From: Eledone cirrhosa
Lineage: Eukaryota
DNA length: 64,000 nt
Direction: 5' to 3'
Assembly: GCA_964016885.1 (NCBI GenBank)
Contig: OZ024741.1
Location: 164,176,001 to 164,240,000, forward strand
Part shown: one piece after another, positions 6,710 through 64,000 of the stretch
Layout: the number at the start of each line of letters is the position of its first letter
Numbering within the stretch: the first letter of the stretch is position 1
Made by a program: the position numbers and the translations under genes
Notes under the pieces: generated by a model
What the model was told of the DNA's origin: nothing
The model's database searches: none
What the model saw: the letters and a program-made list of their open reading frames with translations, nothing else

Positions 6710-6989
6710 TGTAGCCGGAGGCATTGGGACTTACCTTGCGTCTTTCTATCACTCGTTCCACTGTCCACGTAGGGTACTACCAAACAGCGTCTCCTCACGC
6801 GGCGCTAACAGCCAAGTGGCCGCTGCCCACCGATTGGTCCCTCGTGTCGCCCCCGTCCTCCTACTTCCGGTCAGGTGTCTCCCAACTTCCGGCAATCCCC
6901 CTTCTACGCCAGCTCAACACACCCCTCTATCTCACGGCAGCCCCACACGCACCCCTGATCTCAAGGATCAATCCCCCCCCCCTATCACA
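6710..6989 (-). repeat. 3' LTR of Gypsy element
   Basis: TGTGATAG...GCTACA termini on minus; similar to 10165-10399; partial third copy at ~7735-7928. Confidence 0.8.
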
Positions 6990-14823: not shown

Positions 14824-14889
14824 CGTTTTTCGAAATATTTACATATATATATATATATATATATTGTTATGCTTTGGGAGGGTCATGTT

Positions 14890-15008
14890 GCCAATAAGAA
14901 ACACACTCACCAGATGCGTTCACTCCAATTTAAGAATTTATAAGTTTCCGGTTGTTCATATATTGTCAAAGTTCTTTCGTCACACATTCTGTGACCTCTT
15001 CAGTGGCT
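14890..15008 (-). ncRNA. Possible degenerate hammerhead at PLE 3' end
   Basis: agcca CTGAAGA ggtcacagaatgtgtgac GAAA gaa; stem II is clear, but the stem III/I partner (ttcttattggc) lies ~75 nt away and is one base out of register. Confidence 0.4.
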
Positions 15009-17222
15009 GGGATTCTTTTCTTTGTTTTTGTGCCTCTCCTTTGTTCTGTCCTACGCCATCTTGTTTTTGTGTGTTGCTTGCTTAGTTTGCGCATGTGTTA
15101 CATCCGGGTGTCTGTGTGTGTTTATATTTGTTTATTTATTTGTTTATTTACATGTTACTGGTTGGTTGTTTGTTCTATGTGTGTGTGTGTGTGTTTTCAT
15201 TTTGTCCTTAATTGTAAGTTGTGACGTTGCTATTCCATTCATGTTTTCTATTTAATTTTGGTTGGAGTTCATTTATGTTTATTGCTTCTGTGATTTGTCT
15301 AAACATTACGTCTTTTCTGTGTGTATATTCTATTTTTATTTCTATGTTCTCTAATTTGCCCTTATGTTCTATTTTAGCATGTTGGTGGAGTACTGATGAA
15401 TCTTTTCTATCTTGAAGCTCTCGCCAGTGTTCATTTAACCGTTCTCCTATACTACGAGCTGTCTCACCTATGTACACTATATTCTTATCTTTACATTGTC
15501 CTCCAGTACATCTTATGCTATATACTACATTTCTAGTTTTACAGTTAATATGGGGGCTTAGTTTACAGATTATGCATTTCTTATCTATACAGGGAGGTCT
15601 TTGAAAAGGGTATGTATTGCTAATAAGTGTTTTTATGGAGGTAACTGGTCTTTCTACTATCTTAATATTAAGTTTATGTTTATCTAGGGCCCTTCACCTA
15701 ATTCACCTCTAGGGGTTGTATTGATGAACATTACACTCTGGTATTTATTGCTATCAGACCATGAGTTTATTCTATTAACCTTATTCCTAGTTCTTTCTAA
15801 TCTCTTCCAAAATTTGCAAGGGGCAGGTCCCATTTGTATCATTATTTACCATTTTTTCCCATTTGGTTCTGGCTCCTCTATATACTCTGATTTTATCTCT
15901 CTGATTGTAACCAGAGAACTGCATACGGTGGATGAAGTGTTGTATGTGTCTCTCTAGTTCTTTGGGGTTGCACATGCGGGACACGTTTCTCATCACCCGT
16001 ACCAAATCCGCAATCAGTATGTTGATTTTGGTGTAATGCGAAACAGCTGAGTTTCGGTGGATCAGATATTTGGAAGTCATGGGTTTGGCATAATGGGAAT
16101 GGAGGATTTGTTTTTTTTTGTTGTTAATGGCTTCTAACCAGAGCTCTGTGTCTAGTACAGGTAATCGATGGTTGGGGTGTTTTCTTGGGTAGTCTATAGT
16201 AACTCTAATACTTTGGTGGATGGAGTTAGCTATTTGCTGGATGCTTTCCATGGTGTTTTTCTCTAATTCCTGACTGTTCTCTAGTGGCGGTGTTTTTACT
16301 ACGATGTTTATATCATCAACGTAGCGGGAGTACATTATCAGGGTTAAGAGGTTGCTGTCTTCTAATTGTTCTTTAAGTTTAAGTCTTCTGTCCCACCATA
16401 CCATGAATAGGTTAGCTATGTCACCTGCAATGCTAACACCAATAGCTGCTCCCTCCTCTTGGGCATATGTTTTTCCATTAAATTTGAACATATGTTCCTT
16501 AAGGGTTAATTTTATACTGGCCCCCACCGCATGTGCAATCATTTTCTTTAGTTCATCGTGGTTTTCGGGGGGTCCGTATGGCTCTGGTCCACCCATTCCA
16601 TCTTTCTGTGTGAGTTTTCTTGGCCATTGAGGTAATGGTAGGTGGTCTGGCTCTTGCTGGTCTTGTAGGGCACAGGTTGCTAAGGTCATATGTATCTAGA
16701 TAATCATTACTATAGGTAAGTTTAAGTAGGAGTCTCAACTCACTGGTATCAATCCCACGGAATTCAACATTGCTCTCACTGATCATTTCTACGCATTTCT
16801 CCACAGCAAAATCCACGTCAATGGATGGATATAGGGACACAACATCCATACTACCTATTATGCAGTCTGTTAGGTCCCTAGATCGGTTACTTTCGCTGAT
16901 TCTGCCGAGGAGGTCCTCCGTGCTGTCACATATATCTGGGGACATTTCAATGATGGGGCGTATGATCAGGGAGAGGAAGTAGAAAAGTCTGTAGTTACTA
17001 GCAATGTTAGCTTCACAGACTGGCCGTGTTGGTGGTCCTGTGACAGGGTCACTGCTCGTTTTATGGTCTTTTCGAAGCCCATACACGCTGGCACGTCATT
17101 GTTCCAGGCCTGGAAGTTGTTGGCAGTCCTTTTATTGGGCTGCATTATGTTTGTCCACATCATCATATGGGCATTGAAGAAATATAAGAAGAAATTCAAA
17201 GATGGTTAAAAAAGTTCCATAT

Positions 17223-17291
17223 ATTTTATTATGCGCATTTCAAAAACAAATATCATCCTGGGACGATAGTTGCGTTCTCATCAGATAAAAT
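17223..17291 (-). ncRNA. Type I hammerhead ribozyme (PLE pLTR type)
   Basis: attttat CTGATGA [~16-bp stem II with G-U pairs and 2 mismatches] GAAA tgcgca TA ataaaat; perfect 7-bp stem I, palindromic stem III. Confidence 0.85.
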
Positions 17292-18164
17292 AAGGTAACA
17301 TGATATGATACCTAAAAAACACTTGTGAACAAGAAAGTGTCCTGTCAACATATGATAAAAATATATAATAGGAGAGAGAAGATTGGAAAAAAGAAGGAAG
17401 AGCGAAAAGGAAAAAGAAGGAGAAAATAACGGAGGAAAAATTTAAGAAGGAAAGAGAAAGGAGAGAGAGAGAGACTTTTAATCGGGAAACGCTGTCAAAA
17501 CTGAAAAACAGCTGTAAATAACGGCTAAAAAATATATATACGGCTACGAAATAAATAAATAAATAAATTGATGAGGTTTATGTGCTTAAACTAGGTATAT
17601 TATTTAATTAGGGTTTATATACTAAAAAAATTGATTAAGAGGTGTAAAAATTTATTATTAAAATAAAATAAAGTAAAATAAAATTAAATTAAATGATTTA
17701 TAAGCGTAGAAGACATATGTCATAGTTTGTTTAAATAGAGTGTAATTGAAAAATGTGTGAAGAGTTATTTATGTGAAAAAATATATATATGTGTAGAAAT
17801 AAGAGTAGTCAAACCATGTCAAAAATTAAAAATTAAAAATTTGCTAATAAAAATTATAGATTATATACAAAAAAAATTATATATGTGGGAAAACTATTTA
17901 AATATTTAAATATTATTTTAATCCACAAGTAAATAAGCGTAGAAAAAAACGTAGAAATAAACATATGACGTCATAATTTGTTTACAAACTCTACGAAGGT
18001 TTATACTGATATGATAAAGGAGGGAAAATGAGCGGCTTAAAAATAGTGAGAAAAGAATATAAAGAAACATTAAATATGAACTATTTACATATTATTTTGT
18101 ATCACCAAGTAGATAAAGGAATTTGCTAGAGTGATTTAAAGCGTAGAAGACCATATAACGTCAT

Positions 18165-36295: not shown

Positions 36296-38819
36296 AGCTG
36301 TCAGAAGTGATAGTAGGCGAAGGTGACGTCATTCGTCAACCTTCTCAATCGTAAACATCGTTTATTTCCGTATTACCACGGGTTATTTTAATAAAGCATA
36401 TCGATGTAAGTGGAGTTACTTAAATGAAAATATAGGTGGCCCTTAAAAGGCCCAAATTAGAAATTAATTAGAAAACAAGTCATGATTATCAAATAAATTT
36501 GATTTAATCATTTATATTTTCAGTCATGGTTATCAATGTAGAAAACAAGTCATTTTCACCAACAGTGGAGTTACTTCTGACAGCTAATACCATGAACTTA
36601 AATGAATTTTCACCAACAGTGGAGTTACTTCTGACAGCTAATACCATGAACTATATTTTCATAGCCATGGTTATCAATGTAGAAAACAAGTCATTTTCAC
36701 CAACAGTGGAGTTACTTCTGACAGCTAATACCATGAACTATATTTTCATAGCCATGGTTATCAATGTAGAAAACAAGTCATTTTCACCAACAGTGGAGTT
36801 ACTTCTGACAGCTAATACCATGAACTATATTTTCATAGCCATGGTTATCAATGTAGAAAACAAGTCATTTTCACCAACAGTGGAGCTACTTCTGACAGCT
36901 AATACCATGAACTTAAATGAATTTTCACCAACAGTGGAGTTACTTCTGACAGCTAATACCATGAACTATATTTTCATAGTCATGGTTATCAATGTAGAAA
37001 ACGAGTCATTTTCACCAACAGTGGAGCTACTTCTGACAGCTAATACCATGAACTATATTTTCATAGCCATGGTTATCAATGTAGAAAACGAGTCATTTTC
37101 ACCAACAGTGGAGTTACTTCTGACAGCTAATACCATGAACTATATTTTCATAGCCATGGTTATCAATGTAGAAAACAAGTCATTTTCACCAACAGTGGAG
37201 TTACTTCTGACAGCTAATACCATGAACTATATTTTCATAGCCATGGTTATCAATGTAGAAAACAAGTCATTTTCACCAACAGTGGAGCTACTTCTGACAG
37301 CTAATACCATGAACTTAAATGAATTTTCACCAACAGTGGAGTTACTTCTGACAGCTAATACCATGAACTATATTTTCATAGTCATGGTTATCAATGTAGA
37401 AAACGAGTCATTTTCACCAACAGTGGAGCTACTTCTGACAGCTAATACCATGAACTATATTTTCATAGCCATGGTTATCAATGTAGAAAACGAGTCATTT
37501 TCACCAACAGTGGAGTTACTTCTGACAGCTAATACCATGAACTATATTTTCATAGCCATGGTTATCAATATAGAAAACAAGTCATTTTCACCAACAGTGG
37601 AGTTAACTTAAATGAAAATATAGGTGGCCCTTAAAAGGGCCAAATTAGAAAACAAATATATGGTTATCAAATTTTTTTCACCAACCCTATACATTTATGA
37701 AGAAATGTTTAGAAAACAAATTTGTTTCACCAACCTTATTCAAAAGCATGGATACAGTCCACATGGAGACAAGAGACAGTCCCCATGGAGACAATCATCA
37801 CCAACACCACCAACACCAAGTGTAAATAAATAAACTTTAATCTTCACTTTGTGATAATACACGCATTTGCAAGTTGAAAAATATGAATTCTACAATATAC
37901 CCAAGTGTTAATGGGATTAACCATCGCGATCTTTCCATCGCCACCGTTACTACAGCAGATACCATCAATTGGTTGAAAAGTCATGGACTTCTGAATACAC
38001 AAAAGGTCTGCTCTTCATGTGGTGAACGCATGTTGGAAGTAGCGAAAAAAAATGTGTCAGATGGGATTATCTGGTCATGTGGAAGACCATGGAGAAAATA
38101 GGTGTCGATTAGAATAGGCACATTTCTATAAAATAGTAATTTGAAGTGTGAACAAATAGTTGATATATTGTATTATTGGGCAAAAGAAGATTTAGCCAAG
38201 AAGATTTCACAGGAATGTCGTATCGCGAATGTGGCCGTAACAGATTGGCGAAATGTTTGCCTTGATGTATGTGCAGAGTATTATATGGCACAAAACATTA
38301 AGCTTGGCGGGCATACCGAATTGTCGAGATTGACGAAAGCGCCTTCGTGAGAAGGAAATACCATGTTGGCCATCTGGTGAAAACACAGTGGGTTTTTGGT
38401 GCTTTGGAAAGAGGTACCAGAAGATGTTTTTTAGTAACAGTAGAAGACCGGACAGCAGAGACACTTTTAGCCGTTATACAGGATCGTATATTGCCTGGCA
38501 CAACTATAATACGATCGATCAGCTAGGCTATCAACATTTGACTGTGAACCATTCCATCAATTTTGTTGATCCTGTAACATTTGCCACAACGAATCACATA
38601 GAATGCTTGTGGAAACATGTAAAGAATAGGAATAAAATGGAAAACGGAACAGCCAGAAACTTGCTTCAAACCCATCTAATTGAATTCATGTGGCGGTATG
38701 AATTTAAAGGTGAAATTTCCCAAAAGTTATTAGAACATATTCGTCATCTGTATCCATAAGAATAAGGTTGGTGAAAAAAATGTTTCTAAACATTTCTTCA
38801 TAAATGGTGAAAAAAATTT
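36296..38819 (+). mobile_element. Merlin (IS1595/ISXO2-like DDE) DNA transposon, transposase pseudogene at 37874-38759
   Basis: CSSC..M....DG..W.C, VEIDESAF..RKYHVG...QWVFG, HLTVNHSINFVDP...TNHIECLW...HLIEFMWR; ORF flanked by inverted repeats 37672-37741 / 38760-38818. Confidence 0.88.
36526..37605. repeat. Minisatellite of 87-bp and 54-bp units (13 full units + 1 partial)
   Basis: ttttcaccaacagtggagttacttctgacagctaataccatgaact repeated; both unit lengths are multiples of 3, giving a 361-aa repetitive ORF. Confidence 0.95.
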
Positions 38820-39212
38820 GACACTACAACGCTATTAGCTGTCAGTCCAGTGGAAAACAGGCGGTGACGTCACTCGTCAACATCGTTTATTTCCGTATTA
38901 CTACCACGCGTAAGTGGAGTTTTCACGCGTTTTTCTTTTTTTTAGAGAGAGAGGGAAGAGGAGAGATAGGGGAGAGAGAGAGGGAAGACTTAAAAGGGCT
39001 AAATTAGAAAACAAATAGAAAACAAGTCTTGGTTATAAAGCATATCGATGTAAGTGGAGTTACTTAAATGAAAATATAGGTGGCCCTTAAAAGGGCCAAA
39101 TTAGAAAACAAGTCATGGTTATCAATGTAGAAAACAAGTCATTCATAAATTTAAGTTTTATAATCAAATTTTTTTCACCAACAAATATGACAGCTAATAG
39201 CGTTGTAGTGCC
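38820..39212. mobile_element. Non-autonomous Merlin derivative with ~25-bp TIRs
   Basis: gacactacaacgctattagctgtca ... tgacagctaatagcgttgtagtgcc; interior matches 36296-36545. Confidence 0.8.
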
Positions 39213-47674: not shown

Positions 47675-47808
47675 CTATTCTCAGTTAAGTCTCCAGGCAA
47701 TATATATATATATATATATAATGTAGGAGGTGAGTTTTATTGTAGTACAATAAAGCAATGCAGATATCGGATAAGAAGCACTCTACAGTTTGTGGGACTG
47801 GAGTATGC

Positions 47809-48034
47809 ATAATATAAGATCAAAAGATGGTTAAAGGAGTTCCATTTATTTTATTATGCGCATTTCAAAAACAAATGTTGATTTAAAACTGCACTATCAA
47901 CAAGTGTTTTTTAGCCTTCATATCATGTTCTCCTGTTTTATCTGATGAAAACACAAATATTATTGTTTGATGATGTTTGTTTTTGAAATGCGCATAATAA
48001 AATATATGGAACTCCTTTAACCATCTTTTGATCT

Positions 48035-48042
<8 letters not shown>
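47809..48042 (+). mobile_element. Small fold-back PLE-derived element with ~65-bp inverted ends
   Basis: aatataagatcaaaagatggttaaaggagttccat...aaacaaa mirrored at the right end; homologous to 17197-17335. Confidence 0.85.
47935..48003 (+). ncRNA. Type I hammerhead ribozyme
   Basis: gttttat CTGATGA aaacacaaatattat-tgtttg-atgatgtttgttttt GAAA tgcgca TA ataaaat. Confidence 0.85.
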
Positions 48043-48072
<30 letters not shown>

Positions 48073-48222
48073 ATAATTGTTTCTACTTTAGGCACAAGGC
48101 CAGCAATTACCCAGTACATTACTGGTACTTTATTTTATCGACCCCGTAAGGATGAAAGGCAAAGTTAACCTCGGCGGGATTTGAACTCAGACTGTAAAGG
48201 GACGTAACTATGCTAGAAAGCA

Positions 48223-48929: not shown

Positions 48930-51900
48930 TCCTATCAACTAATCCGACCTCCAAAATGCTTGCAATTGACTATTTTTTTTAGCATATTAACAACAAATAT
49001 GATGTCCACTGCAATTAAAAATGGCTAGCTTTGTGAATGGTTTTTCCACCCACTTTCTGCCTTCATTTTTCTACAAAGCTAATCATTGACGATAGGTTTC
49101 AAAGTTATATTCATTCATAATATGTGAAAAAAAAAGTCAACTGCAAGCATTGGTGTGATGTAAATGATAGGAGTAGGTGTTCTGTAATAAATTTACCATA
49201 TGGTGAAGTATGGTTATGGTGAAGTATATGGTGTGGATTGGGGTAGATTAATGTGCTGTGCTGTGCTTTGTTATAAGTAAGGATTTAAATTTCCACTTTG
49301 ATTTATGTTAGAAAAAAAATTTTTCCTTCATTTTTGCCTGTGTTATCAACTTCCAAGAAGCTCGCAGTGGACTATGCTTTTAGCATATTATCAAAAAATA
49401 TGACTTCCGCTGCAATAAAAAATGACTAGCTTTGTAAATGGTATTTCCACCCACATCCTCCCTCTTTTTTCTACAAAGCTAGTCATTTTCGACAGTTTTC
49501 CATGTCATAATTATTGATAATATGTGCGAAAAATAGTCAATTGCAGCACCTTTGATGTCAGATTGGGTGGTAAGAACACACACACAAAGAAAAAAGAGAC
49601 AGAGAGAAAATTTTTCACACTGAGATCAAAAGCATGGTGTGTTAGTGGTTTTAGTGTTAGTGCTCAGATTAGTGGTTTATGGTAGTGTTAGTTTTAGTGG
49701 TAGTGTTAATGTTCAGGTTAATGTTCGTGTTAATGTCAGTTTTAGTGTTAGTGTTTACGGTAGTGTTAGTGCTAGTTTTTGTTTTTCTGTTAATGTTAGT
49801 GTTTATTTTAGTGTTGAGGTTAATGTTAGCTTAGTTTTCTGGTTAGTATCAGTTTTCGTGTTAGTTTTAATGTTAGTGTGCAGGTTAGTGTTAGTGTTTT
49901 TTTTAGTGTTAGTTTTTATGGTAGTGTTAGTGTTACTGTTAGTGCTCAGATCTGTGTTACTGTTTATGGTGTTAGCTTTAGTACTAGTGTTTAGGTTAAT
50001 GTTAGTTTTAGTGTAAGTGTTCAGGTTAGTGTTAGTGTTCAAGTTATGTTAGTGTTAGTTTTAGTGTTAAGGTTAGTGTTAGAGATTGTGTTAGTGTTTG
50101 TTTTTGTGTTAATATTTGTGTTAGTATCTCTGTTAGTGTTAGTGTTCAGGTTAATGTTAGTTTTAGTGTAAGTGTTCAGGTTAGTGTTAGCGATTGTGTT
50201 AGTGTTAGTTTTAGTGTTAAGGTTAGTGTTAGAGTTTGTGTTAGTGTTAGTATTTGTTTTTGTGTTAATATTTGTGTTAGTATCTCTGTTAGCATTATTG
50301 TTTGATGTTTCCATTAGTGTTAGTGTTAGTCTTTGTTTTTGTGTTAATGTTAGCATTAGTATTTATGTTAGTGTTAGCATGAGTGTTTGTGTTAGTGTTC
50401 AGGTTAATGTTAGCTTAGTTTTCAGGTTAGTGTTAGTGTTCAAGTTAATGTTAGTTTTAGTGTTAGAGATTGTGTTAGTGTTTGTTTTTGTGTTAATGTT
50501 TGTGTTAGTATCTCTGTTAGCATTAGTGTTTGATATTTCCATTAGTGTTAGTGATTGTGTTAGCGTTAGTCTTTGTTTTTGTGTTAATGTTAGCATTAGT
50601 ATTTCTGTTAGTGTTAGCATTAGTGTTTATGTAAGTGTTCAGGTTAATGTTAGCTTAGTTTTCAGGTTAGAGTTAGTGTTCAAGTTAATGTTAGTTTTAG
50701 TGTTGAGGTTAGTGTTAGAGATTGTGTTAGTGTTTGTTTTTGTGTTAATATTTGTGTTAGTATCTCTGTTAGCGTTAGTGTTTGTTTTAGTCTTGAAGTT
50801 AATGTTAGCTTATTTTTCTGGTTAGTATCAGTTTTCAGATTAGTGTTTGTGTTACTTTTAGTGTTAGTGCTCAGGTCAGTGTTAGTGTTTATGGTAGTGT
50901 TAGTTTTAGTGCTAGTGTTCAGGCTAATGTTTGTGCTAATGTTAGTTTTTGTGTAAGTGTTCAGGTTACTGTTAGTGTTTGTATTAGTGTTTACGGTAGT
51001 GTTAGTTTTAGTGCTGGTGTTCAGGTTAGTGTTAGTGTCAGTTTTAGTGTTAGTGTTCAGGTTAGTGTTTGTGTCAGTTTTAGTGTTAGTGTTTGTGTTA
51101 GTTTTCTATTTATGTTAGTTTTCAGATTTTGTGTTTGTGTTAGTTTTCATGTTAGCGCTAAGTTCACTGTTAGAGCATGTGTGAGTGCAAGTGTTAGGGT
51201 AAGTGTTATTTTTAAAGTTAGGTTTTCTACTTTCCAGGAAAAAAGTTGATCCCCTCTAACTTGAGTGGTGTGATATATTGTGGTAAAGTATAGTGTTTCA
51301 TAGTCTTGTGTGGTATTGTCTATTGTTGTATAGTGTAGTATGGTATATTGTTTCATAGCATGGTCTGATGCGAGGTCGTACAGTGTTTCGTAGTGTGGTG
51401 TTGGATAATCTGGTAGGGTATAATGTTTGTGAATGTGGTGTGGCATGGTATAGGTTGATGTAGTGTGGCTTAGTTTGATTATAATAATACAAATAATAAT
51501 AACAATAATAATAGTACTAATAATTGTTTTCTTGTTCCTTTTCTTTGTCTTCTTCTGTGCCTTTGTTTTCTTCTGTGCCTTTGACTTCTTCTGTGCCTTT
51601 GACTTCTTCTGTGCCTTTGACTTCTTCTGTGCCTTTGACTTCTCCTGTGCCTTTATCTTCTCCTCTGCCATCTAAATACCAAAAACAAAGAATGTAAAAC
51701 ATATATGTTGCCTATCTCTTAGACTTTACAAAGTGCTGAGGAGATAAAGTTAATTTAAAGACCAGTGTGCTCATGCACTGTGATCCTATAATGTATCTTA
51801 TAAGCTATTTCATAACTAAAAAACAATGTCAAACATCAACAAAAGTATATACAAATATCTTTGAATGTTTAAGTTAAACCTAAATAGACTGTATCTACAG

Positions 51901-54900: not shown

Positions 54901-57900
54901 TTAGCATTTGCGTCAGCATCTGCATCAGCATTCACATTAGCATTAGCGTTTGCGACAGCGTTTCCTTTAACGTCTTTGCCAGCATTTCCGTTAGCGTCTG
55001 TGTCAGTGTTTCCGTTAGCTTCTACGTCAGCGTTTCCGTTAGCTTCTACGTCAGTGTTTCCGTTAGCTTCTACGTCAGCATTTCCGTTAGCATCTACGTC
55101 AGCATTTCCGTTAGCATCTATGTCAGTGTTTCCGTTAGCGTCTGTGTCAGTGTTTCCGTTAGCTTCTACGTCAGCGTTTCCGTTAGCGTCTACGTCAGCG
55201 TTTCCGACCGCGTCTGTGTCAGCGTCAGTATTTACATCTACATCAGCATCAGCGTTTCAGTTAACGTCAGTGTTTACATTAGCGTCTGTGTCAGCGTTTA
55301 CGTTAGCTTCTGTGTCAGCGTTTACGTTAGCTTCTACGTCAGCGTTTCCGTAACGTCTACGTCAGCGTTTTCCGTTAGCATTGGCGTTTCCATCAACCTT
55401 TCCTGTGGCGTCCGCATCATTGCAGCGTCTGCATATCCCATGTAAGCGTTAACTTCAGCATTTGCATCAGCGTTAGCGTTAGCCTTAGCTCTAGCGTCCG
55501 TATCAGCATTTGCGTTAGCGTCAGCATACACGTCAGCGCCGGCAATACTGCCTCAACATTTGCGTCAGCGTTAGCTTGGCTTTGGCTTCAGCAATCCGCA
55601 TCAGCAATTGCGTTTTGGAGATCAGCTTCGGCGGTAAGGGTAAACGCTAACTTCTACGCCTGCTTCTACGTAACAACTACGTCAGAGTTTTGTTAGCTTC
55701 TACGTCAGCGTTTACGTTAGCTTCTACATCAGCACCTACGTTAGCTTCTACGTCAGCGTCTACGTTAACATCTACGTCATCGTTTACGTTAGCTTCTACA
55801 TCAGCATCTACGTTAGCTTCTACGTCAGCGCTTACATTAGTGTCTGTGTCAGCGTTTGTGTTAGCTTCTACATTAGCGTCTGTATTTACATCTACACCAC
55901 CGTCAGCGTTTACATTTGCGTCTGTGTCAGCATTTACGTTAGCTTCTACGTCATCGTTTATGTTAGCGACTGTGTCAACGTGTTAGCATCTGTGTCAGCG
56001 TTTATGTTAGCGTCTGCATCAGTGTTTATATTAGCATCTGCGTAAGTGTTTACGTTAGCATCTGTGTTAACATGTGTCAGCGTCTGTGTCAGCATTTTCA
56101 TTAGTGTTTGCATCAGTGTTTCCTTTAGCTTCTACGTCAATGTTTACGTCTGCGTTAAGGTTCACATTAGCATCGCTGTCATCGTTTGCATCAGCATTTG
56201 CGTTTGCTTTCACATCTGCATCAACATTTGCCTCTTTGTTTGCATTAGTGTCTGCATTTGCTTTAGTGTTTGCATCAGTTTTAGCATTTGTGTCAGTGTC
56301 CACGTCAGCGTCAGAGTCTGTGTAGCATTTACATCAGCGTGTGCATCAGAGTCTTTGTCAGCATTCGCCTTTGCACCTGCATCAGTATTCACCTTAGTCT
56401 TTGTGTCAGCGTAAGTGATTGTGTCAACATTTGCGCTAGCGTTTGTGCCAGCAGAGCCATCTTCGTCAGTGTCAACTTTGGCGTTAGTGTTTCCATTAGA
56501 GTTCATGTTAGTGTTTGATTTTGTATTAGTGTTAGCAATTTTGTTAGTGTTAGTGCTAGCATTTTTGTTAGTGTTAGTGTTAAGGTTAGTGTTAGTATTT
56601 GTTTTTGTGTTAATATTTGTGTTAGTATCTCTGTTAGCATTAGTGTTTGATGTTTCCATTAGTGTTAGTGATTGTGTTAGTGTTTGTTTTTGTGTTAGTA
56701 TCTCTGTTAGTGTTAGTTTTAGTGTAAGTGTTCAAGTTAATGTTAGTGTTAGTTTTAGTGTTAGTATTTGTTTTTGTGTTAATATTTGTGTTAGTATCTC
56801 TGTTAGCATTAGTGTTTGATGTTTCCATTAGTGTTAGTGATTGTGTTAGTGTTAGTCTTTGTTTTTGTGTTAATGTTAGCATTAGTATTTCTGTTAGTGT
56901 TAGCATGAGTGTTTGTGTTAGTGTTCAGGTTAATGTTAGCTTATTTTTCAGGTTAGTGTTAGTGTTCAAGTTAATGTTAGTTTTAGTGTTAGAGATTGTG
57001 TTAGTGTTTGTTTTTGTGTTAATATGTGTGTTAGTATCACTGTTAGTGTTAGTTTTAGTGTTAAGGTTAGTGTTAGAGATTGTGTTAGTGATAGTATTTG
57101 TTTATGTGTTAATATTTGTGTTAGTACCTCTGTTAGCATTAGTGTTTGATGTTTCCATTAGTGTTACTGATTGTGTTAGCGTTAGTCTTTTTTTGTGTTA
57201 ATGTTAGCGTTAATGTTAGCATTAGTATTTCTGTTAGTGTTAGCATGAGTGTTTGTGTTAGTGTTCAGGTTAATGTTAGCTTATTTTTCAGGTTAGTGTT
57301 AGTGTTCAAGTTAATGTTAGTTTTAGTGTTAGAGATTGTGTTAGTGTTTGTTTTTGTGTTAATATTTGTGTTAGTATCACTGTTAGTGTTAGTTTTAGTG
57401 TTAAGGTTAGTGTTAGAGATTGTGTTAGTGATAGTATTTGTTTTTGTGTTAATATTTGTGTTAGTACCTCTGTTAGCATTAGTGTTTGATGTTTCCATTA
57501 GTGTTAATGATTGTGTTGGCGTTAGTCTTTTTTTGTGTTAATGTTAGCGTTAATGTTAGCATTAGTATTTCTGTTAGAGTTAGCATGAGTGTTTGTGTTA
57601 GTGTTCAGGTTAATGTTAGCTTAGTTTTCAGGTTAGTGTTAGTGTTCAAGTTAATGTTAGTTTTAGTGTTAGAGATTGTGTTAGTGTTTGTTTTTGTGTT
57701 AATATTTGTGTTAGTATCTCTGCTAGTGTTAGTTTTAGTGTTAGTGTTCAGGTTAATGTTAGTTTTAGTGTAAGTGTTCAAGTTAATGGTAGTGTTAGTT
57801 TTAGTGTTAAGGTTAGTGTTAGAGATTGTGTTAGTGTTGGTATTTGTTTTTGTGTTAATATTTGTGTTAGTATCTCTGTTAGCATTAGTGTTTGATGTTT

Positions 57901-60900
57901 CCATTAGTGTTAGTGATTGTGTTAGCGTTAGTCTTTGTTTTTGTGTTAATTTTAGCATTAGTATTTCTGTTAGTGTTAGCATTAGTGTTTATGTTAGTGT
58001 TCAGGTTAATGTTAGCTTAGTTTTCAGGTTAGAGTTAGTGTTCTAGTTAATGTTAGTTTTAGTGTTGAGGTTAGTGTTAGAGATTGTGTTAGTGTTTGTT
58101 TTTGTGTTAATATTTGTGTTAGTATCTCTGTTTGCGTTAGTGTTTGTTTTAGTGTTGAAGTTAATGTTAGCTTAGTTTTCTGGTTAGTATCAATTTTCAG
58201 ATTAGTGTTTGTGTTAGTTTTACTTTTAGTGTTAGAGCTCAGGTCAGTGTTTGTGTTTATGGTAGTGTTAGTTTTAGTGCTAGTGTTCAGGCTAATGTTT
58301 GTGCTAATGTTAGTTTTAGTGTAAGTGTTCAGGTTAGTGTTAGTGTTTGTATTAGTGTTTACGGTAGTGTTAGTTTTAGTGCTGGTGTTCAGGTTAGTGT
58401 TAGTGTCAGTTTTAGTGTTAGTGTCAGTTTTAGTGTTAGTGTTTGTGTTAGTTTTCTATTTAATGTTAGTTTTCAGATTTTGTGTTTGTGTTAGTTTTCA
58501 TGTTAGCGCTAAGTTCACTGTTAGAACATGTGTGAGTGCAAGTGTTAGGGTAAGTGTTATTTTTAAAGTTTAGCTTAAAGTTAGGTTTTCTACTTTCCAG
58601 GAAAAAAGTTGATGCTCTCTAACTTGAGTGGTGTGATATATTGTGGTAAAGTATAGTATTTCATAGTCTTGTGTGGTATTGTCTATTGTTGTATAGTGTA
58701 GTATGGTATATTGTTTCATAGCATGGTCTGATGTGAGGTCGTACAGTGTTTCGTAGTGTGGTGTTGGATAATCTGGTAGGGTATAATGTTTGTGAATGTG
58801 GTGTGGTATGGTATAGGTTGATGTAGTGTGGCTTAGTTTGATTATAATAATACAAATAATAATAACAATAATAATAGTAATAATAATTGTTCTTCTTGTT
58901 CATTTTCTTTGACTTCTTCTGTGCCTTTGACTCCTTCTGTGCCTTTGACTTCTTCTGTGCCTTTGACTGCTTCTGTGGCTTTGACTTCTTCTGTGCCTTT
59001 GACTTCTTCTGTGCCTTTGACTTCTTCTGTGCCTTTGACTTCTTCTGTGCCTTTGACTTCTCCTGTGCCTTCATCTTCTCCTCTGCCATCTAAATACCAA
59101 AAACAAAGAATGTAAAACATATATGTTGCCTATCTCTCAGACTTTACAAAGTGCTGAGGAGATAAAGTTAATTTAAAGAGCAGTGTGCTCATGCACTGTG
59201 ATCCTATAATGTAGCTTATAAGCTATTTCATAACTAAAAAACAATGTCAAACATCCACAAAAGTATATACAAATATCTTTGAATGTTTAAGTTAAACCTA
59301 AATAGATCGTATCTACAGGTCATTAGGTTTAGACTGAACTAAGATCATATCTATAAATCATTAGGTTTAGACTGAACTGAGATCATACTTTCTTCTTCTT
59401 TTCGTCATCTTCGTTTCCCGTGTCTTCTTTGACTTTGTTGTCATTTTCATTTTAGTCGTCTGCTTCGTCGTCTTTTTCTTCTTTTCCATCTAAATATAAA
59501 AAAAAATTGTAAACATATATATAGCTGATCTCTCAGACTTTCACGAAACACCGAGGAGATACAGTTAATATAACGAGTGGGGAGCTCATATATATATATA
59601 TGGTATAGCATGGTGGTATGTGGTCTGGTGTGGTACAACATGGTGTGATGTGGTGTGGTATGATATGGTGAGGCCGGGGGGGGGGGGACACAACGTTAGA
59701 TTAATGTTAACAATACACATGTAGCATCCACATGTGATGAGAAGGGGGAAACAGTGTTTAACTAATTTTAACATTACATGTAGCATCCATCTACAGGTGA
59801 TTAAGTTAAGACTGAGGTGTAATCATATGAAAAGGTCAATTTAAAACTACACTGAGATTCTGCTTAAAATGATGGTCAATGAAGTGTTTACTTACTCAGA
59901 TCCTTTGAAATAACTTTCTTTCTCTTACTGTAACTGGACATACCTACGAAATAGAAAACAGTCGAATAGACAGTGGTGTGGTGTGGTGTGGTGTAGTGTA
60001 GTGTGGTTTAGTGTAGTGGACAGTGGTGTGGTGTAGTGTAATGGAGTGTGGTTTAGTGTAGTGGACAGTGGTGTGGTGTAGTGGAGTGTGGTTCAATGTA
60101 GGGTGGGGGATATGGTGTAGTGGAGTGTGGTGGTATGTAGTGTGGTAGCATGTGGTGTGATGGCATGTGATGTGATGTGGCATGGTGAAATGTGATGTGA
60201 TGTGATGAAATGTGGCGTGGCATGGTGAAATGTGATGTGGCGTGGTGAAACGTGGCGTCGCGTGGTGAAATGAGGCGAGGCGAGACAAGACAAGAGGAGA
60301 CGTGGTGTGATGGCGTGCGGAGTGATTTGATGTGGTGTGATGTGATGGCGTGCGGAGTGATTTGATGTGGTGTGATGTGAAATTTTTTCATCCTATTTTT
60401 CATGTGCTATAAACTTCCAAGAAGCTCGCAGTGGACTATGCTTTTAGCATATTAACAAAAAATATGACTTCCGCTGCAATAAAAAATGACTAGCTTTGTA
60501 AATGGTATTTCCACCCACATCCTCCCTCTTTTTTCTACAAAGCTAGTCATTTTCGACAGTTTTCCATGTCATAATTATTGATAATATGTGCGAAAAATAG
60601 TCAATTGCAGCACCTTTGATGTCAGATTGGGTGGTAAGAACACACACAAAAAAAAAAAAGAAACGGGAAGAAAATTTTTCAGACTGAGATCAAAAGCATG
60701 GTGTGATGTAGAATGGTGTAGTTTGTTGTGGTGTGGTTTGGATTGTTGTAGTTATGACATGGGAACCTATTGCAAATGATAGGTTTCCATGTTATATACA
60801 TTGATAATGTGTAAAAAAATAGTTATTTGTGAGCACCTTTGATATCAGATTGGGTGGTAAGCACACACACACACACAGAAAAAAAAAAACAGGAAGAAAA

Positions 60901-63900
60901 ATGTTCTCACTGAGATTAATAGCATGGTGTGATGTAGTATGGTGTAGTTTGATGTAGTTTAATGTGGTATGGTTTTCCAACCTCCAACATGCTCACAGCC
61001 GACTATGCTTTTACCATCATCATCATCATTTTACGTCCACTTTTCCCTGCTTGCAAGGATGGGATGGGAACTGATTCTGGCTTGATTTCTACAGCTGGAT
61101 GCCCTTCCTAACACCAACCTCATTTACAGTGAGTGCTGGGTGGTCTTTGCCATGGCACCTACACGACCACTTTGCAGTGGAATGATAGGGACACCAGTCC
61201 CTATCATCTCATTTCTACAGCTGTGGAAACTGGAGCAATGTGAAATAAAGTGTCTTGCTCAAGGAAACAACACACCACCTGGTCTGAGAATTGAACTCAC
61301 AACCTTTCGATTGCAAGGCCAATGCTCTAACCACTAAGCCATTTGCCTCCATTACCATATTAACAACAAATATGACTTTAACTGCAATAAAAAATGACAA
61401 GCTTTGTGAAATGTATTTCCACCCACTTTCCGCCCTCTTTTTTCTACAAAGCTAGTCATTTTCAATAGGTTTCAAAGTCTTCATCGATAATATGTGCAAA
61501 AAATAGTTAATTGCAAACACTTTTAATGTCAGATTGGGTGGTAAGCACACACACAAAAAAAGACAAAAAAAGCAGGAAGAAAATTGTTCACACTGAGTTC
61601 AATAGCATGGTGTGATGTAGTATGGTGTAGTTTGTTATGGTGTGGTTTGGTTTGGTGTAGTTTGGGTATGGTTTAGTTTGGTGTAGTTATAACATGGAAA
61701 CCTATCATAAATTAACCAAGGTATGGTATAATCTGGTTTGGTGTAGTGTAGGTTAGTGTGGTGTGGTGTGTTATTGTGTTGCATCGTATAGCGTGATTCT
61801 CTTTAAATTGAAATCATTAAAATGTAATGCCTATCTTCTATATCTTAAAGAGTGACCTTAAATGTGATTGCAAATGACTTTTTTCTCTGGATTAATGTTA
61901 GATTTAGGGTTAGTGTTAGGGTAAGTTTTACTGTTAATGGTAAGTTTATTGTTAGTGACTGTGTTACTGTTAGCATTACTGTCACTGTTAGTGTTACTGT
62001 AACTCTTACAGTTACTGTTTGCGTTACTGTCTGCATAAGCGTCTATGTAAACTTTTGTGTTAGTATCTATGTAGACTGGTGTTAGCATCTGCGTTAGTGT
62101 TTGGATTAGCCTTAGTGTTTGCGTATGGTGTCAGCATCTATGTCAGCATTTGCGTCAGCGTCTGCATTGGTGATAGTTATTGTGTCAGCATTTCCCTTAG
62201 CGTCTTAGTCAACATTAGTGTTAGCATTAGTGTTTGTTTCAGTGCCTACGTCTACATCAGCTTCTGAATCAGCATTATCATTAGCGTCCGCGTCAGCACT
62301 TGTGTCAGTGTCAGCGTTTGCATCAGCGTGCACGTCAGCATTTGCATTAGTGTTTGAGTCAGAGTTTGCATTTGTGTAGGGGTTAGCATTTGCGTCAGCA
62401 TCTGCATCAGCATTCACATTAGCATTAGCGTTTGCGACAGCGTTTCCTTTAACGTCTTTGTCAGCATTTCCATTAGCATCTGTGTCAGTGTTTCTGTTAG
62501 CTTCTACGTCAGCATTTCCGTTAGCTTCTACGTCAGTGTTTCCGTTAGCTTCTACATCAGCATCTATGTTAGCTTCTACGTCAGCGTCTACGTTAACATC
62601 TACGTCATCGTTTACGTTACCTTCTACATCAGCATCTACATTAGCTTCTACGTCAACGCTTACATTAGTGTCTGTGTCAGCGTTTACGTTAGCTTCTACG
62701 TCATCGCTTACATTAGCGTCTGCATCATCGTTTATGTTAGCGTCTGTGTCAACGTGTTAGCATCTGTGTCAGCGTTTATGTTAGCGTCTGCGTCAGTGTT
62801 TATATTAGCATCTGCATAAGTGTTTACGTTAGCATCTGTGTTAACATGTGTCAGCGTCTGCGTCAGCATTTTCATTAGTGTTTGCATCAGTGTTTGCTTT
62901 AGCTTCTACGTCAATGTTTACGTCTGCGTTAAGGTTCACATTAGCATCGCTGTCATCATTTGCATCAGCATTTGCGTTTGCTTTAACATCTGCATCAACA
63001 TTTGCGTCTGTGTTTGTATTAGTGTCTGCATTTGCTTTAGTGTTTGCATCAGTTTCAGCATTTGTGTCAGTGTCCACGTCAGCGTCAGAGTCTGTGTAGC
63101 ATTTACATCAGCGTGTGCATCAGAGTCTTTGTCAGCATTCGCCTTTGCACTTGCATCAGTATTCACCTTAGTGTTTGTGTCAGCGTAAGTGATTGTGTCA
63201 ACATTTGTGCTAGCGTTTGTGCCAGCAGAGCCATCTTCGTCAGTGTCAGCTTTGCCGTTAGTGTTTCCATTAGTGTTCATGTTAGTGTTTGATTTTGTAT
63301 TAGTGTTAGCAATTTTGTTAGTGTTAGTGCTAGCATTTTTGTTAGTGTTAGTGTTCAGGTTAATGTTGACTTAGTTTTCTGGTTATTGTTAGTTTTCAGG
63401 TTCGGGCTCATGTTACTTTTAGTGTTAGTGCTCAGGTTAGTGGTTTATGGTAGTGTTAGTTTTAGTGGTAGTGTTAGTGTTCAGGTTAATGTTCGTGTTA
63501 ATGACAGTTTTAGTGTTAGTATTTACGGTAGTGTTAGTGTTTCCATTAGTATTAGTGCTAGTCTTTGTTTTTCTGTTAATGTTAGTGTTTGTTTTAGTGT
63601 TGAGGTTAATGTTAGCTTAGTTTTCTGGTTAGTATCAGTTTTAGTGTTAGTGTTAGTTTTTATGGTAGTGTTAGTGTTATTGTTAGTGCTTAGATCAGTG
63701 TTACTGTTTATGGTAGTGTTAGTTTTAGTGCTAGTGTTTAGGTTAATGTTAGTTTTAGTGTAAGTGTTCAGATTAGTGTTAGTGTTCAAGTTATGTTAGT
63801 GTTAATGTTAGTTTTAGTGTTAAGGTTAGTGTTAGAGATTGTGTTAGTGTTTGTTTTTGTGTTAATATTTGTGTTAGTATCTCTGTTAGCATTAGTGTTA

Positions 63901-64000
63901 GTGATTGTGTTAGTGTTAGTATCTCTGTTAGTGTTAGTTTTAGTGTTAGTGTTCAGGTTAATGTTAGTGTTAGTTTTAGTGTTAAGGTTAGTGTTAGTAT
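48930..64000. repeat. Large tandem duplication, period ~7.4-7.5 kb, about two units, continuing past the window end
   Basis: 51147-56560 recurs at ~58500-63350, including the same SINE insertion (53513 and 61015); contains (GTTAGT)n-like, (GCGTCA)n-like, (GTGTG)n-like and 18-bp arrays. Confidence 0.93.
51517..52528 (-). pseudogene. Putative three-exon relic encoding a charged low-complexity peptide (second copy ~58870-59943)
   Basis: ttttctatttcgtag|52528-52481|gtaagt; tttatatttag|52071-51971|gtatga; tttttggtatttag|51671...; purine-rich exons; in-frame stop in the middle exon. Confidence 0.45.

Follow-up and report, generated by a model that had tools for sequence, protein, structure and literature searches.

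In the window, a 64,000-nucleotide stretch of the Eledone cirrhosa genome, a search with the hammerhead pattern CTGATGA-N-GAAATGCGCATA returned two matches, one at 47942-47996 on the plus strand and one at 17230-17284 on the minus strand; 100 dinucleotide shuffles gave no match. The plus-strand match falls within a fold-back, an inverted repeat with arms of 72 nt (47804-47875 and 47976-48047) that are 96% complementary and lie 100 nt apart. The earlier note on this DNA had described the fold-back and had read its 5′ end as the antisense of the hammerhead 3′ half. It had also reported that the hammerhead and its flanks recur at 17 kb, beside a Penelope (PLE) ORF. Both observations held on re-examination. 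The left arm is indeed the 3′ half of the hammerhead in antisense, and blastn aligned 47900-48044 with 17326-17182 at 82% identity over 145 nt. The left arm alone (47823-47876) aligned with 17198-17251 at 94% identity over 54 nt.

We set the boundaries of the 48-kb element by comparison with 30 genomic copies, which were retrieved with a 28-mer spanning the cleavage site. Of the extent given previously, the end at 48042 stands, but the start at 47809 does not, as the left arm continues through an 86-nt tail to 47721-47723. The full unit occupies 47721-48042 (~320 bp) and has (TA)n at either side (Table 1). Its two arms meet head to head at 47875/47876 and have their 3′ ends outward. The whole hammerhead is in the right arm only, which spans the interval from the preferred 5′ end of the family (ATATGTTGA; here A/TGTTGA) to the terminus that we define as (i), ending in ...GATCTTATATTAT. 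The left arm comprises 67 nt of the element 3′ end and the 86-nt tail extension (~153 nt in total). Its inner part covers, in antisense, the hammerhead 3′ half as far as terminus (i) and ends 10 nt inside the 3′ strand of stem II. The tail abuts (TA)n at a second reverse transcription start site, (ii), and matches the 5′ start of the family's full-length units at 98.8-100% identity (19 of 19 blastn rows). On the right, a SINE adjoins from ~48062; contigs of four runs presumed to be RNA covered this SINE and not 47721-48042.

Table 1. Positions of the fold-back, its target flanks and the PLE-related features at 17 kb, in coordinates of the 64-kb window
Feature	Position	Strand	Basis and details
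Family X PLE copy, 5′-truncated, frame-broken	14861-17180	-	RT pieces 16553-17095 and 15787-16695; GIY-YIG 15208-15693
Second hammerhead module, solo, ~173 nt, sister subfamily (B-like)	17181-17353	-	ATATGTTGA at 17353-17345; 82% to the 48-kb copy
(AT)n microsatellite, left target flank	47700-47722		Sequence reading; the last AT is perhaps the element's (microhomology)
Left-arm tail, 86-90 nt	47721-47808	-	Reverse complement of the unit's first 86 nt, GCATACTCCAG...CCTCCTACAT
Left arm proper, last 67 nt of the element 3′ end	47809-47875	-	Inverted repeat; blastn to 17198-17251
Right arm, complete ~165-nt 3′ module	47876-48042	+	96-99% identical to 3′ ends elsewhere
Type I hammerhead-like motif	47934-48004	+	Pattern match, fold, pairing across copies
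(TA)n microsatellite, right target flank	48043-48070		Sequence, repeat search

The hammerhead-like motif

A hammerhead core is defined by C3-U4-G5-A6-N7-G8-A9, G12-A13-A14, an A15.1-U16.1 pair and a nucleotide other than G at the cleavage site. Reading the plus-strand copy by hand, we found all of the core positions of a type I hammerhead (numbered after PMC4209133). In detail, stem I pairs 47934-47941 with 47997-48004 (8 bp), the CUGAUGA core is at 47942-47948 and GAA at 47985-47987. Stem II (47949-47984) has 15 bp, with one C.U mismatch and with A10.1-U11.1. Stem III and its loop (47988-47995) consist of 2 bp, A-U and U-A, around GCGC, with A47988 paired to U47995. H17 is the A at 47996, and self-cleavage is predicted from this structure to occur at 47996/47997. 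Because the sequence of stem III and its loop, AUGCGCAU, is an 8-nt palindrome, the ribozyme would be a type I hammerhead of the dimer type.

Pairing was counted in 33 distinct copies. They come from 36 regular-expression matches, three of which were set aside: one was unrelated, one was truncated within stem I and one had a stem I deletion. The core columns are invariant in the 33 copies, except for N7 and for one copy each at other positions. With the hand-drawn structure, 96.5% of 807 cells are standard pairs, as compared with 39-62% for slid partners. Pair 10.1-11.1 varies on both sides (A-U in 25/33, G-C in 5/33 and G-U in 3/33, the 17-kb copy being one of these three). Covariation had been proposed as a check of the motif. 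Besides the two-sided change at 10.1-11.1, one-sided variation occurs in eight pairs. For the paired percentage, the shuffle control is barely exceeded, as 15 of 500 shuffles also attain the observed value. The percentage should also be read with the knowledge that the structure was drawn from one of the counted copies and that the 3′ half is fixed by the retrieval method. We take the pairing across copies as support for, and not proof of, a putative hammerhead structure.

The earlier note was also right that stem II differs between the two copies in the window while its pairing is largely kept. In the alignment, seven paired positions differ between the 48-kb and 17-kb copies, and standard pairs are found at 15 of 15 positions in the former and 14 of 15 in the latter. 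All of these differences are one-sided via G-U, so the comparison of the two copies alone holds no compensatory change. The G10.1-C11.1 pair, described as highly conserved among hammerheads in the available part of PMC4209133, is replaced by A-U in the 48-kb copy. Rfam returned no hammerhead model for either the 48-kb or the 17-kb copy, whether the gathering score was applied or E values as high as 10 were allowed. When the isolated motif was folded, stems I and II were recovered in the minimum-energy structure (-11.4 kcal/mol), and the motif was no more stable than shuffles (z = -1.2).

By eye, ~11 of 100 listed junctions (178 matches in total) are compatible with an arm that starts exactly at the predicted cleavage site, compared with 1-4 at neighbouring positions. 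About 7 of these 11 are ambiguous, as they have an AT overlap with the partner arm. A transcript of 47723-48042 (320 nt) has a predicted fold of -126.7 kcal/mol (z = -12.5), in which the two arms are paired. As this pairing buries the 3′ half of the hammerhead and the cleavage site, the ribozyme of the 48-kb copy would be silenced: in the predicted fold, its transcript would form a long hairpin in which the ribozyme is kept from folding.

The parent family and the neighbouring PLE

In the 3.0-Gb genome, the 28-mer at the cleavage site has 3,513 copies in the form ...ATATGG... and 15,310 in the form ...ACATGG..., the latter being the major variant of the family. The family 3′ end is present in at least 18,823 copies, and the reversed control pattern gave no match for either variant. 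Outer ends of the copies fall at two fixed sites that are 86 nt apart. At terminus (i), (TA)n follows directly; at terminus (ii), there are 86 nt more (GCATACTCCAG...CCTCCTACAT) before (TA)n. These 86 nt of tail are the first bases of the family's own unit. At a tandem junction the 86-nt sequence continues into the ORF, and where a full-length copy terminates (locus L031) it stops at (TA)n. Two direct copies 3,686 nt apart at this locus define a unit of 3.69 kb, and one of the two head-to-head copies at L031 has an intact frame of 821 aa. We searched the genome with the RT core (151 residues), and all of the 150 scored places were 98-100% identical and without stops. By manual count, 41 of the 150 scored RT-core copies have the 821-aa open frame. 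From the near-identical, stop-free cores and the open frames, the parent family looks young and is probably active.

Pfam identified nothing in the 821-aa ORF or in three of its relatives, and a sequence search of solved structures with this ORF found nothing relevant. The protein has 24 relatives at E <= 1e-5, one of them named from a cephalopod. When a profile of 16 sequences was compared with the RT of the PLE at 14.9-17.2 kb (family X), the alignment covered 426 columns with an E-value of 0.0014 and a probability of only 18%, and the motifs KDHK, FDI..YPSI, MG, Y.DD, LD and KP were in register. The C-terminus of the 821-aa protein aligned weakly to the GIY-YIG of family X.

According to PMC8557442, PLEs of the Hydra clade carry RWK, have DKT for DKG, a CxCX5C linker and no CCHH in the endonuclease. 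The clade is also described there as having C-terminal CxxC and CxH motifs, (TA)n targets and a hammerhead. In the 821-aa ORF we recognized by eye RRLRWT (RWK in the consensus of the relatives), HSDKTNN, the linker CNCRIKNKC, a single C in LIYECK...YFG, and CNLC and CLH near the C-terminus; the family loci are flanked by (TA)n. These short motifs, as read by eye, suggest that the 821-aa RT plus GIY-YIG protein belongs to the Hydra clade.

The supplement of PMC8557442 names one cephalopod Hydra family, Hydra-1_Obim (2,507 bp, (TA)n). As described in that paper, it resembles the parent family in its C-terminal GIY-YIG without CCHH, in the RWK-like, DKT and CxCX5C motifs, in its insertion into (TA)n, in having a hammerhead near the 3′ end and in its cephalopod host. 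Many RT motifs also agree, by eye, with the published Hydra-1_Obim protein. However, the unit of the parent family is 3.69 kb as against 2,507 bp, and the two hammerheads differ. In the published Hydra-1_oBim hammerhead, the core is CTGAAGAG, stem II has 7 bp and stem III 4 bp; in that of the parent family, the core is CUGAUGA, stem II has 15 bp, and stem III has 2 bp and is closed by GCGC. Given the differences in core and stem II, as judged by eye, the parent family is a relative of Hydra-1_Obim and not the same element. None of the papers listed in a literature search on Penelope, hammerhead and octopus describes the parent family. On its motifs, it would appear to be a new, or at least a separate, member of the Hydra clade.

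The ORF at 14.9-17.2 kb belongs, as judged from protein comparison, to a different PLE family from that of the hammerhead element. A tblastn search with the family X pieces against nine loci of the hammerhead family, each of them full-length or long, gave no match at E <= 1e-3, and the X protein and the 821-aa protein are connected by BLASTP only at E 0.035. In Pfam, the X ORF matches GIY-YIG above the cut-off (23.9 bits) and RVT_1 below it (E 2e-4). Its linker is CX4CxxC and its GIY-YIG core has two cysteines, features that place X outside the Hydra clade. Family X is abundant, with all 130 scored copies 82-95% identical to the one in the window, and a near-complete relative has ~1,243 codons. 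Relatives continue upstream of 17177 with coding sequence, and so the copy in the window is 5′-truncated. It is also broken into three frames, and its 3′ end abuts (TA)n. The 3′ UTR of X contains its own hammerhead-like motif, CTGAAGAG-GTCACA-GAATG-TGTGAC-GAAA, at 14971-15003 on the minus strand. With up to three mismatches allowed, we found this motif at 26 of 66 examined loci, mostly those of X; Rfam reported no hammerhead for it at any threshold.

The earlier note had proposed that the fold-back is a solo pLTR of the PLE at 14.9-17.2 kb, mobilised by that PLE as a helper in the same window. What favours this is the position of the 17-kb module. It extends from the preferred 5′ end of the hammerhead family to the 3′ terminus, with core and cleavage-site motif at 17284-17230, and it lies 8 nt from the truncated 5′ end of X on the same strand. 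However, the hammerhead tail, the 86-nt start and the tail of the sister subfamily were found in none of 25 sampled X loci at E <= 1e-8. Whether full-length PLEs of the 14870-17330 family carry the hammerhead pLTR had been proposed as a test; the X loci instead have a 3′ motif of their own, the situation in which the note itself would have regarded the 17-kb hammerhead as an unrelated neighbour. The ORFs are unrelated at the family level, the candidate helper is truncated and broken, and the 48-kb element is 96-99% identical to the 3′ ends of a different and intact family. An origin from X is hardly credible in the light of these results. The 17-kb module either landed later in (TA)n beside X or was joined to it by a template jump. 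More generally, a PLE ORF next to a hammerhead fold-back should not be assumed to be its source. For the 48-kb copy, the likely source of enzymes is its own family, which has many intact 821-aa ORFs at other places in the genome.

Layout of the insertions and origin of the fold-back

For each 28-mer variant, we took the first 100 places listed and tallied their neighbours within 6 kb. Minus-then-plus pairs, with the tails out, numbered 29 for one variant and 27 for the other, together 56 of 61 close pairs. The opposite arrangement, plus-then-minus with the tails in, occurred zero times for either variant among the 200 listed places. Same-strand pairs numbered one and three, all of them 3.7-4.4 kb apart, which is the spacing of full-length units, and no same-strand neighbours closer than 3.6 kb occurred among the 200 listed places. 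The spacing of the pairs has its mode at 236-256 nt, the distance given by two whole 165-nt modules that meet at their 5′ ends. The other pairs have spacings of as much as 5 kb, with RT genes enclosed in the long ones.

This layout bears on two other explanations of the inverted arms. One is a single truncated insertion to which the inverted arm was added later by local DNA rearrangement, for example by replication template switching. Microsatellites and palindromes are prone to rearrangement. Nevertheless, the same tails-out layout is seen in the great majority of neighbour pairs, and the left arm ends at the family-wide site (ii), which is absent from the right arm; the left arm is therefore no copy of the right one, and we consider this history highly improbable. 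The other is a MITE or foldback DNA transposon with 72-bp terminal inverted repeats, inserted at TA. The inverted repeats in TA-rich flanks have the appearance of such an element, but the arms consist of retroelement 3′-end sequence, one of them extends 86 nt past the repeat, arm lengths and junctions vary by locus so that the termini are not uniform, and the same pairs enclose full-length RT genes. Its probability is close to negligible. Snap-back self-priming of a single cDNA was rejected as well, as the short arm bears a tail that the long arm lacks.

The ends of individual copies were scored in a sample obtained by exact 28-mer retrieval from the first part of one contig (C1). The 3′ end lies at site (i) in 27 of the 60 sampled copies and at site (ii) in 28; of the five that end elsewhere, four are from the sister subfamily, whose end is spelled differently. 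The 86-nt tail is on exactly one arm in 18 of 20 inverted pairs (manual tally), and likewise in the 48-kb copy and all six loci sharing its junction. We found 285 loci at which a short arm ending 0-30 nt after GAAATGCGCATAA meets the same start of the long arm. Among the 100 of these loci that were listed, cut points occur at nearly every position, often with filler bases. The inner junction of the 48-kb copy was found, with at most one mismatch, at five other loci on five contigs (one of them C1), all in (TA)n and with the tail on either side. The six loci sharing the junction belong to different subfamilies, which also have full-length members. By itself, this recurrence would point to a fold-back copied as a unit; among thousands of pairs, where several hits on one position are expected, we read it as probably due to chance.

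As the inner junctions are scattered over 285 loci, the fold-back is best read as a by-product that is made anew with each insertion. A propagating fold-back family was considered and rejected on the same scatter, and the shared ACATGG is not a private mark of such a family. The 48-kb copy is likely, to judge from its junctions, a one-off insertion product and not a propagating fold-back. The earlier note had called it a minimal non-autonomous PLE derivative. The description as a non-coding derivative, made of pLTR or 3′-end sequence only and with an inverted extension, stands; the scattered junctions argue against a minimal non-autonomous element. The interval 47721-48042 is non-coding, and the copy is likely inert.

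Some features would fit a module with a life of its own. In 15 of the 60 sampled copies the 5′ end is no more than 4 nt from a single position (ATATGTTGA), where the solo module at 17181-17353 also begins. The spacings of inverted pairs cluster at a distance that corresponds to two whole modules, and the 48-kb junction is present at six loci. Retrozymes have, moreover, been proposed as derivatives of PLEs, according to the available parts of PMC7229834 and bioRxiv 10.64898/2026.07.22.740005. The fold-back or the 165-nt module could, on this evidence, be a non-autonomous retroelement of the dispersed retrozyme or SINE-like kind, with an internal start at ATATGTTGA and copied by PLE enzymes. This we regard as improbable. 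Pairs of less than 400 nt make up 16 of 29 and 15 of 27 for the two 28-mer variants, a like proportion that fits short copies spun off by each full-length subfamily. In addition, the lack of same-strand neighbours at short distance among the 200 listed places means that short tandem arrays were not seen, and the inner junctions are scattered. A narrower version, in which the 165-nt module is a self-transcribed mini-retroelement that Hydra-clade enzymes insert two-endedly, with one end priming at (i) and the other at (ii), is unlikely, although we give it some weight.

The comparison with known elements bears on the same point. Metazoan non-LTR retrozymes (PMC7229834; Li et al. 2026) are, in the portions available, short non-coding hammerhead repeats that are proposed to depend on PLEs, with a size range (170-400 nt) that suits the case here. 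They are, however, described as tandem repeats with circular RNAs (PMC7229834), and the parent family had no tandem array among the 200 listed places.

We conclude, with a probability of roughly 0.85, that the 48-kb element consists of two 5′-truncated 3′ ends of one abundant Hydra-clade PLE family, placed head to head in (TA)n, and likely by a single insertion in which both cut target ends primed reverse transcription. Under this model, both cut ends of the (TA)n target would prime reverse transcription of the element RNA. For the right arm, copying would begin at start site (i) and reach a fixed RNA 5′ end (~165 nt); for the left arm, it would begin at start site (ii) and stop after ~153 nt, with 10 nt of stem II copied. 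Joining of the two cDNAs would follow, and the hammerhead would be carried along as part of the element 3′ region. As the (TA)n target hides any target-site duplication, the single event is inferred from the layout and not shown.

The proposed steps have precedents in published work. In the available part of PMC8557442, PLE insertions are described with an adjacent inverted and 5′-truncated copy, often with a tail at one end, and with (TA)n targets. PMC4209133, in the part available, reports hammerheads ~100-700 bp apart on opposite strands. The 48-kb copy shares with the insertions described in these two sources the inverted 5′-truncated copy, the tail at one end, the hammerhead in the 3′ or pLTR region and the (TA)n target, and with those of PMC4209133 the distance of a few hundred bases between hammerheads on opposite strands. 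It differs from the PLEs of PMC8557442 in that its arms are only ~153 and ~165 nt; with both arms so extremely short, only pLTR sequence remains. At 86 nt, the tail of this family is longer than the 30-40 nt quoted there.

The model of two-ended priming rests on in vitro work with an element from another PLE clade. In that work (PMC11167929), a purified PLE protein cleaved and extended both DNA strands, and the tail was bounded by the two internal sites where it started reverse transcription; for this one PLE, insertion did not require the hammerhead. The element, Poseidon from Anolis carolinensis, thus resembles the parent family in its two internal start sites bounding a tail, and in cleavage and extension of both strands at AT-rich DNA. 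The two start sites and the processing of both strands would together give the layout seen at 48 kb. In Poseidon, however, the strands show no difference in start site, whereas one site per arm is found in 18/20 pairs here.

The architecture is known, and the fold-back is likely an expected PLE footprint, an ordinary dead by-product that matters little as a discovery. For annotation, the hammerhead fold-backs of this genome are best masked as stumps left by a Hydra-clade PLE family that is young and very abundant. Of wider use are the dozens of intact 821-aa ORFs and the thousands of two-ended insertions. They offer natural data on PLE integration, with two fixed start sites, one tail per insertion, a fixed 5′ end and stops at the stem II foot. 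If true, the rule of one site per arm would constrain the unsolved mechanism of PLE integration, as the published in vitro system does not have that rule (PMC11167929).

We found no rule for which arm is the longer, the tail-bearing one or the other: among unequal pairs, the arm at site (i) was longer in ~11 and the arm at site (ii) in ~5. Short arms, read by eye, often end at the base of stem II or a little way into it, which would fit stalling of the RT on the long stem II hairpin.

5′ ends of the hammerhead-family copies

Among the 60 sampled genomic copies of the hammerhead family (the abundant Hydra-clade Penelope-like element, PLE), a quarter (15 of 60) have 5′ ends within 4 nt of ATATGTTGA, where a small hairpin (GTTGAT...ATCAAC) has its 5′ foot. 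Random truncation would not explain this pattern well; it points instead to a fixed 5′ end of the hammerhead-family RNA, which could be a start site within the pLTR or a site of processing. The two copies in the window begin at this same family-wide position (see the table).

Arms and tails of the inverted pairs

Inverted pairs consist of two arms lying head to head with their 3′ ends outwards. At the 60 loci, the 86-nt tail, which separates the two start sites of reverse transcription, is carried by exactly one arm in 18 of 20 inverted pairs, whereas about half of the pairs would be one-tailed if the arms chose their start sites independently. This differs from published in vitro work on a PLE, which detected no difference in start site between the strands. 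At one inverted pair (L017/L018, G000 C1:35314244 and 35317183) the outer flanks are identical on both sides; this may be an artefact of the assembly, or a palindromic duplication of a large segment.

In the genome-wide junction lists, GCGCATTTC followed by 0–5 A is a frequent end of the short arm and coincides with the point at which the 15-bp stem II would be reached by the reverse transcriptase. These lists also show slightly more arms than expected that could begin at the predicted cleavage site, an excess that is ambiguous through AT overlap.

A hammerhead-like motif in family X

The hammerhead-like motif of family X, a separate PLE family, combines CTGAAGAG, a 6-bp stem II that includes the G10.1-C11.1 pair, the sequence GAAA and a short helix of AAAG with CUUU. 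The motif has no Rfam match; by pattern matching with at most 3 mismatches it is present at 26 of the 66 loci examined. Tails-out pairs were also seen for this motif, for example at locus L022 with a spacing of 196 nt. Locus L061 holds a near-complete family X copy of about 1,243 codons in total, in which a single in-frame stop at 6894-6896 (-) splits frames of 778 and 464 aa.

Other features in the window

Two histone 3′ UTR stem-loops lie about 1.5 kb apart, which suggests a histone gene cluster. The SINE-like repeat turns up often, and in many variants, in contigs of four runs tentatively taken to be RNA. The minisatellite arrays include repeats built on the hexamer TTAGTG, a higher-order repeat of 340 nt and repeats of the 24-nt unit TTAGCGTCTACGTCAGCGTTTCCG. 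The block recurs at a distance of about 7.4 kb, as with the 18-mer arrays at 51543 and 58907.

Coordinates of features in the window
Feature	Position	Strand	Remarks
Preferred 5′ end, hammerhead family	47876 and 17353		Same family-wide position
Family X hammerhead-like motif	14971-15003	-	3′ UTR of the window copy of unrelated PLE family X
Histone 3′ UTR stem-loops (two)	37601-37646 and 39058-39102	-	Rfam 37 and 34 bits, at or above gathering score
SINE-like repeat	about 48083-48200		Lies immediately to the right of the (TA)n
Large minisatellite arrays	49651-51148, 54943-56149, 56483-58506, 62423-62923, 63270-63998
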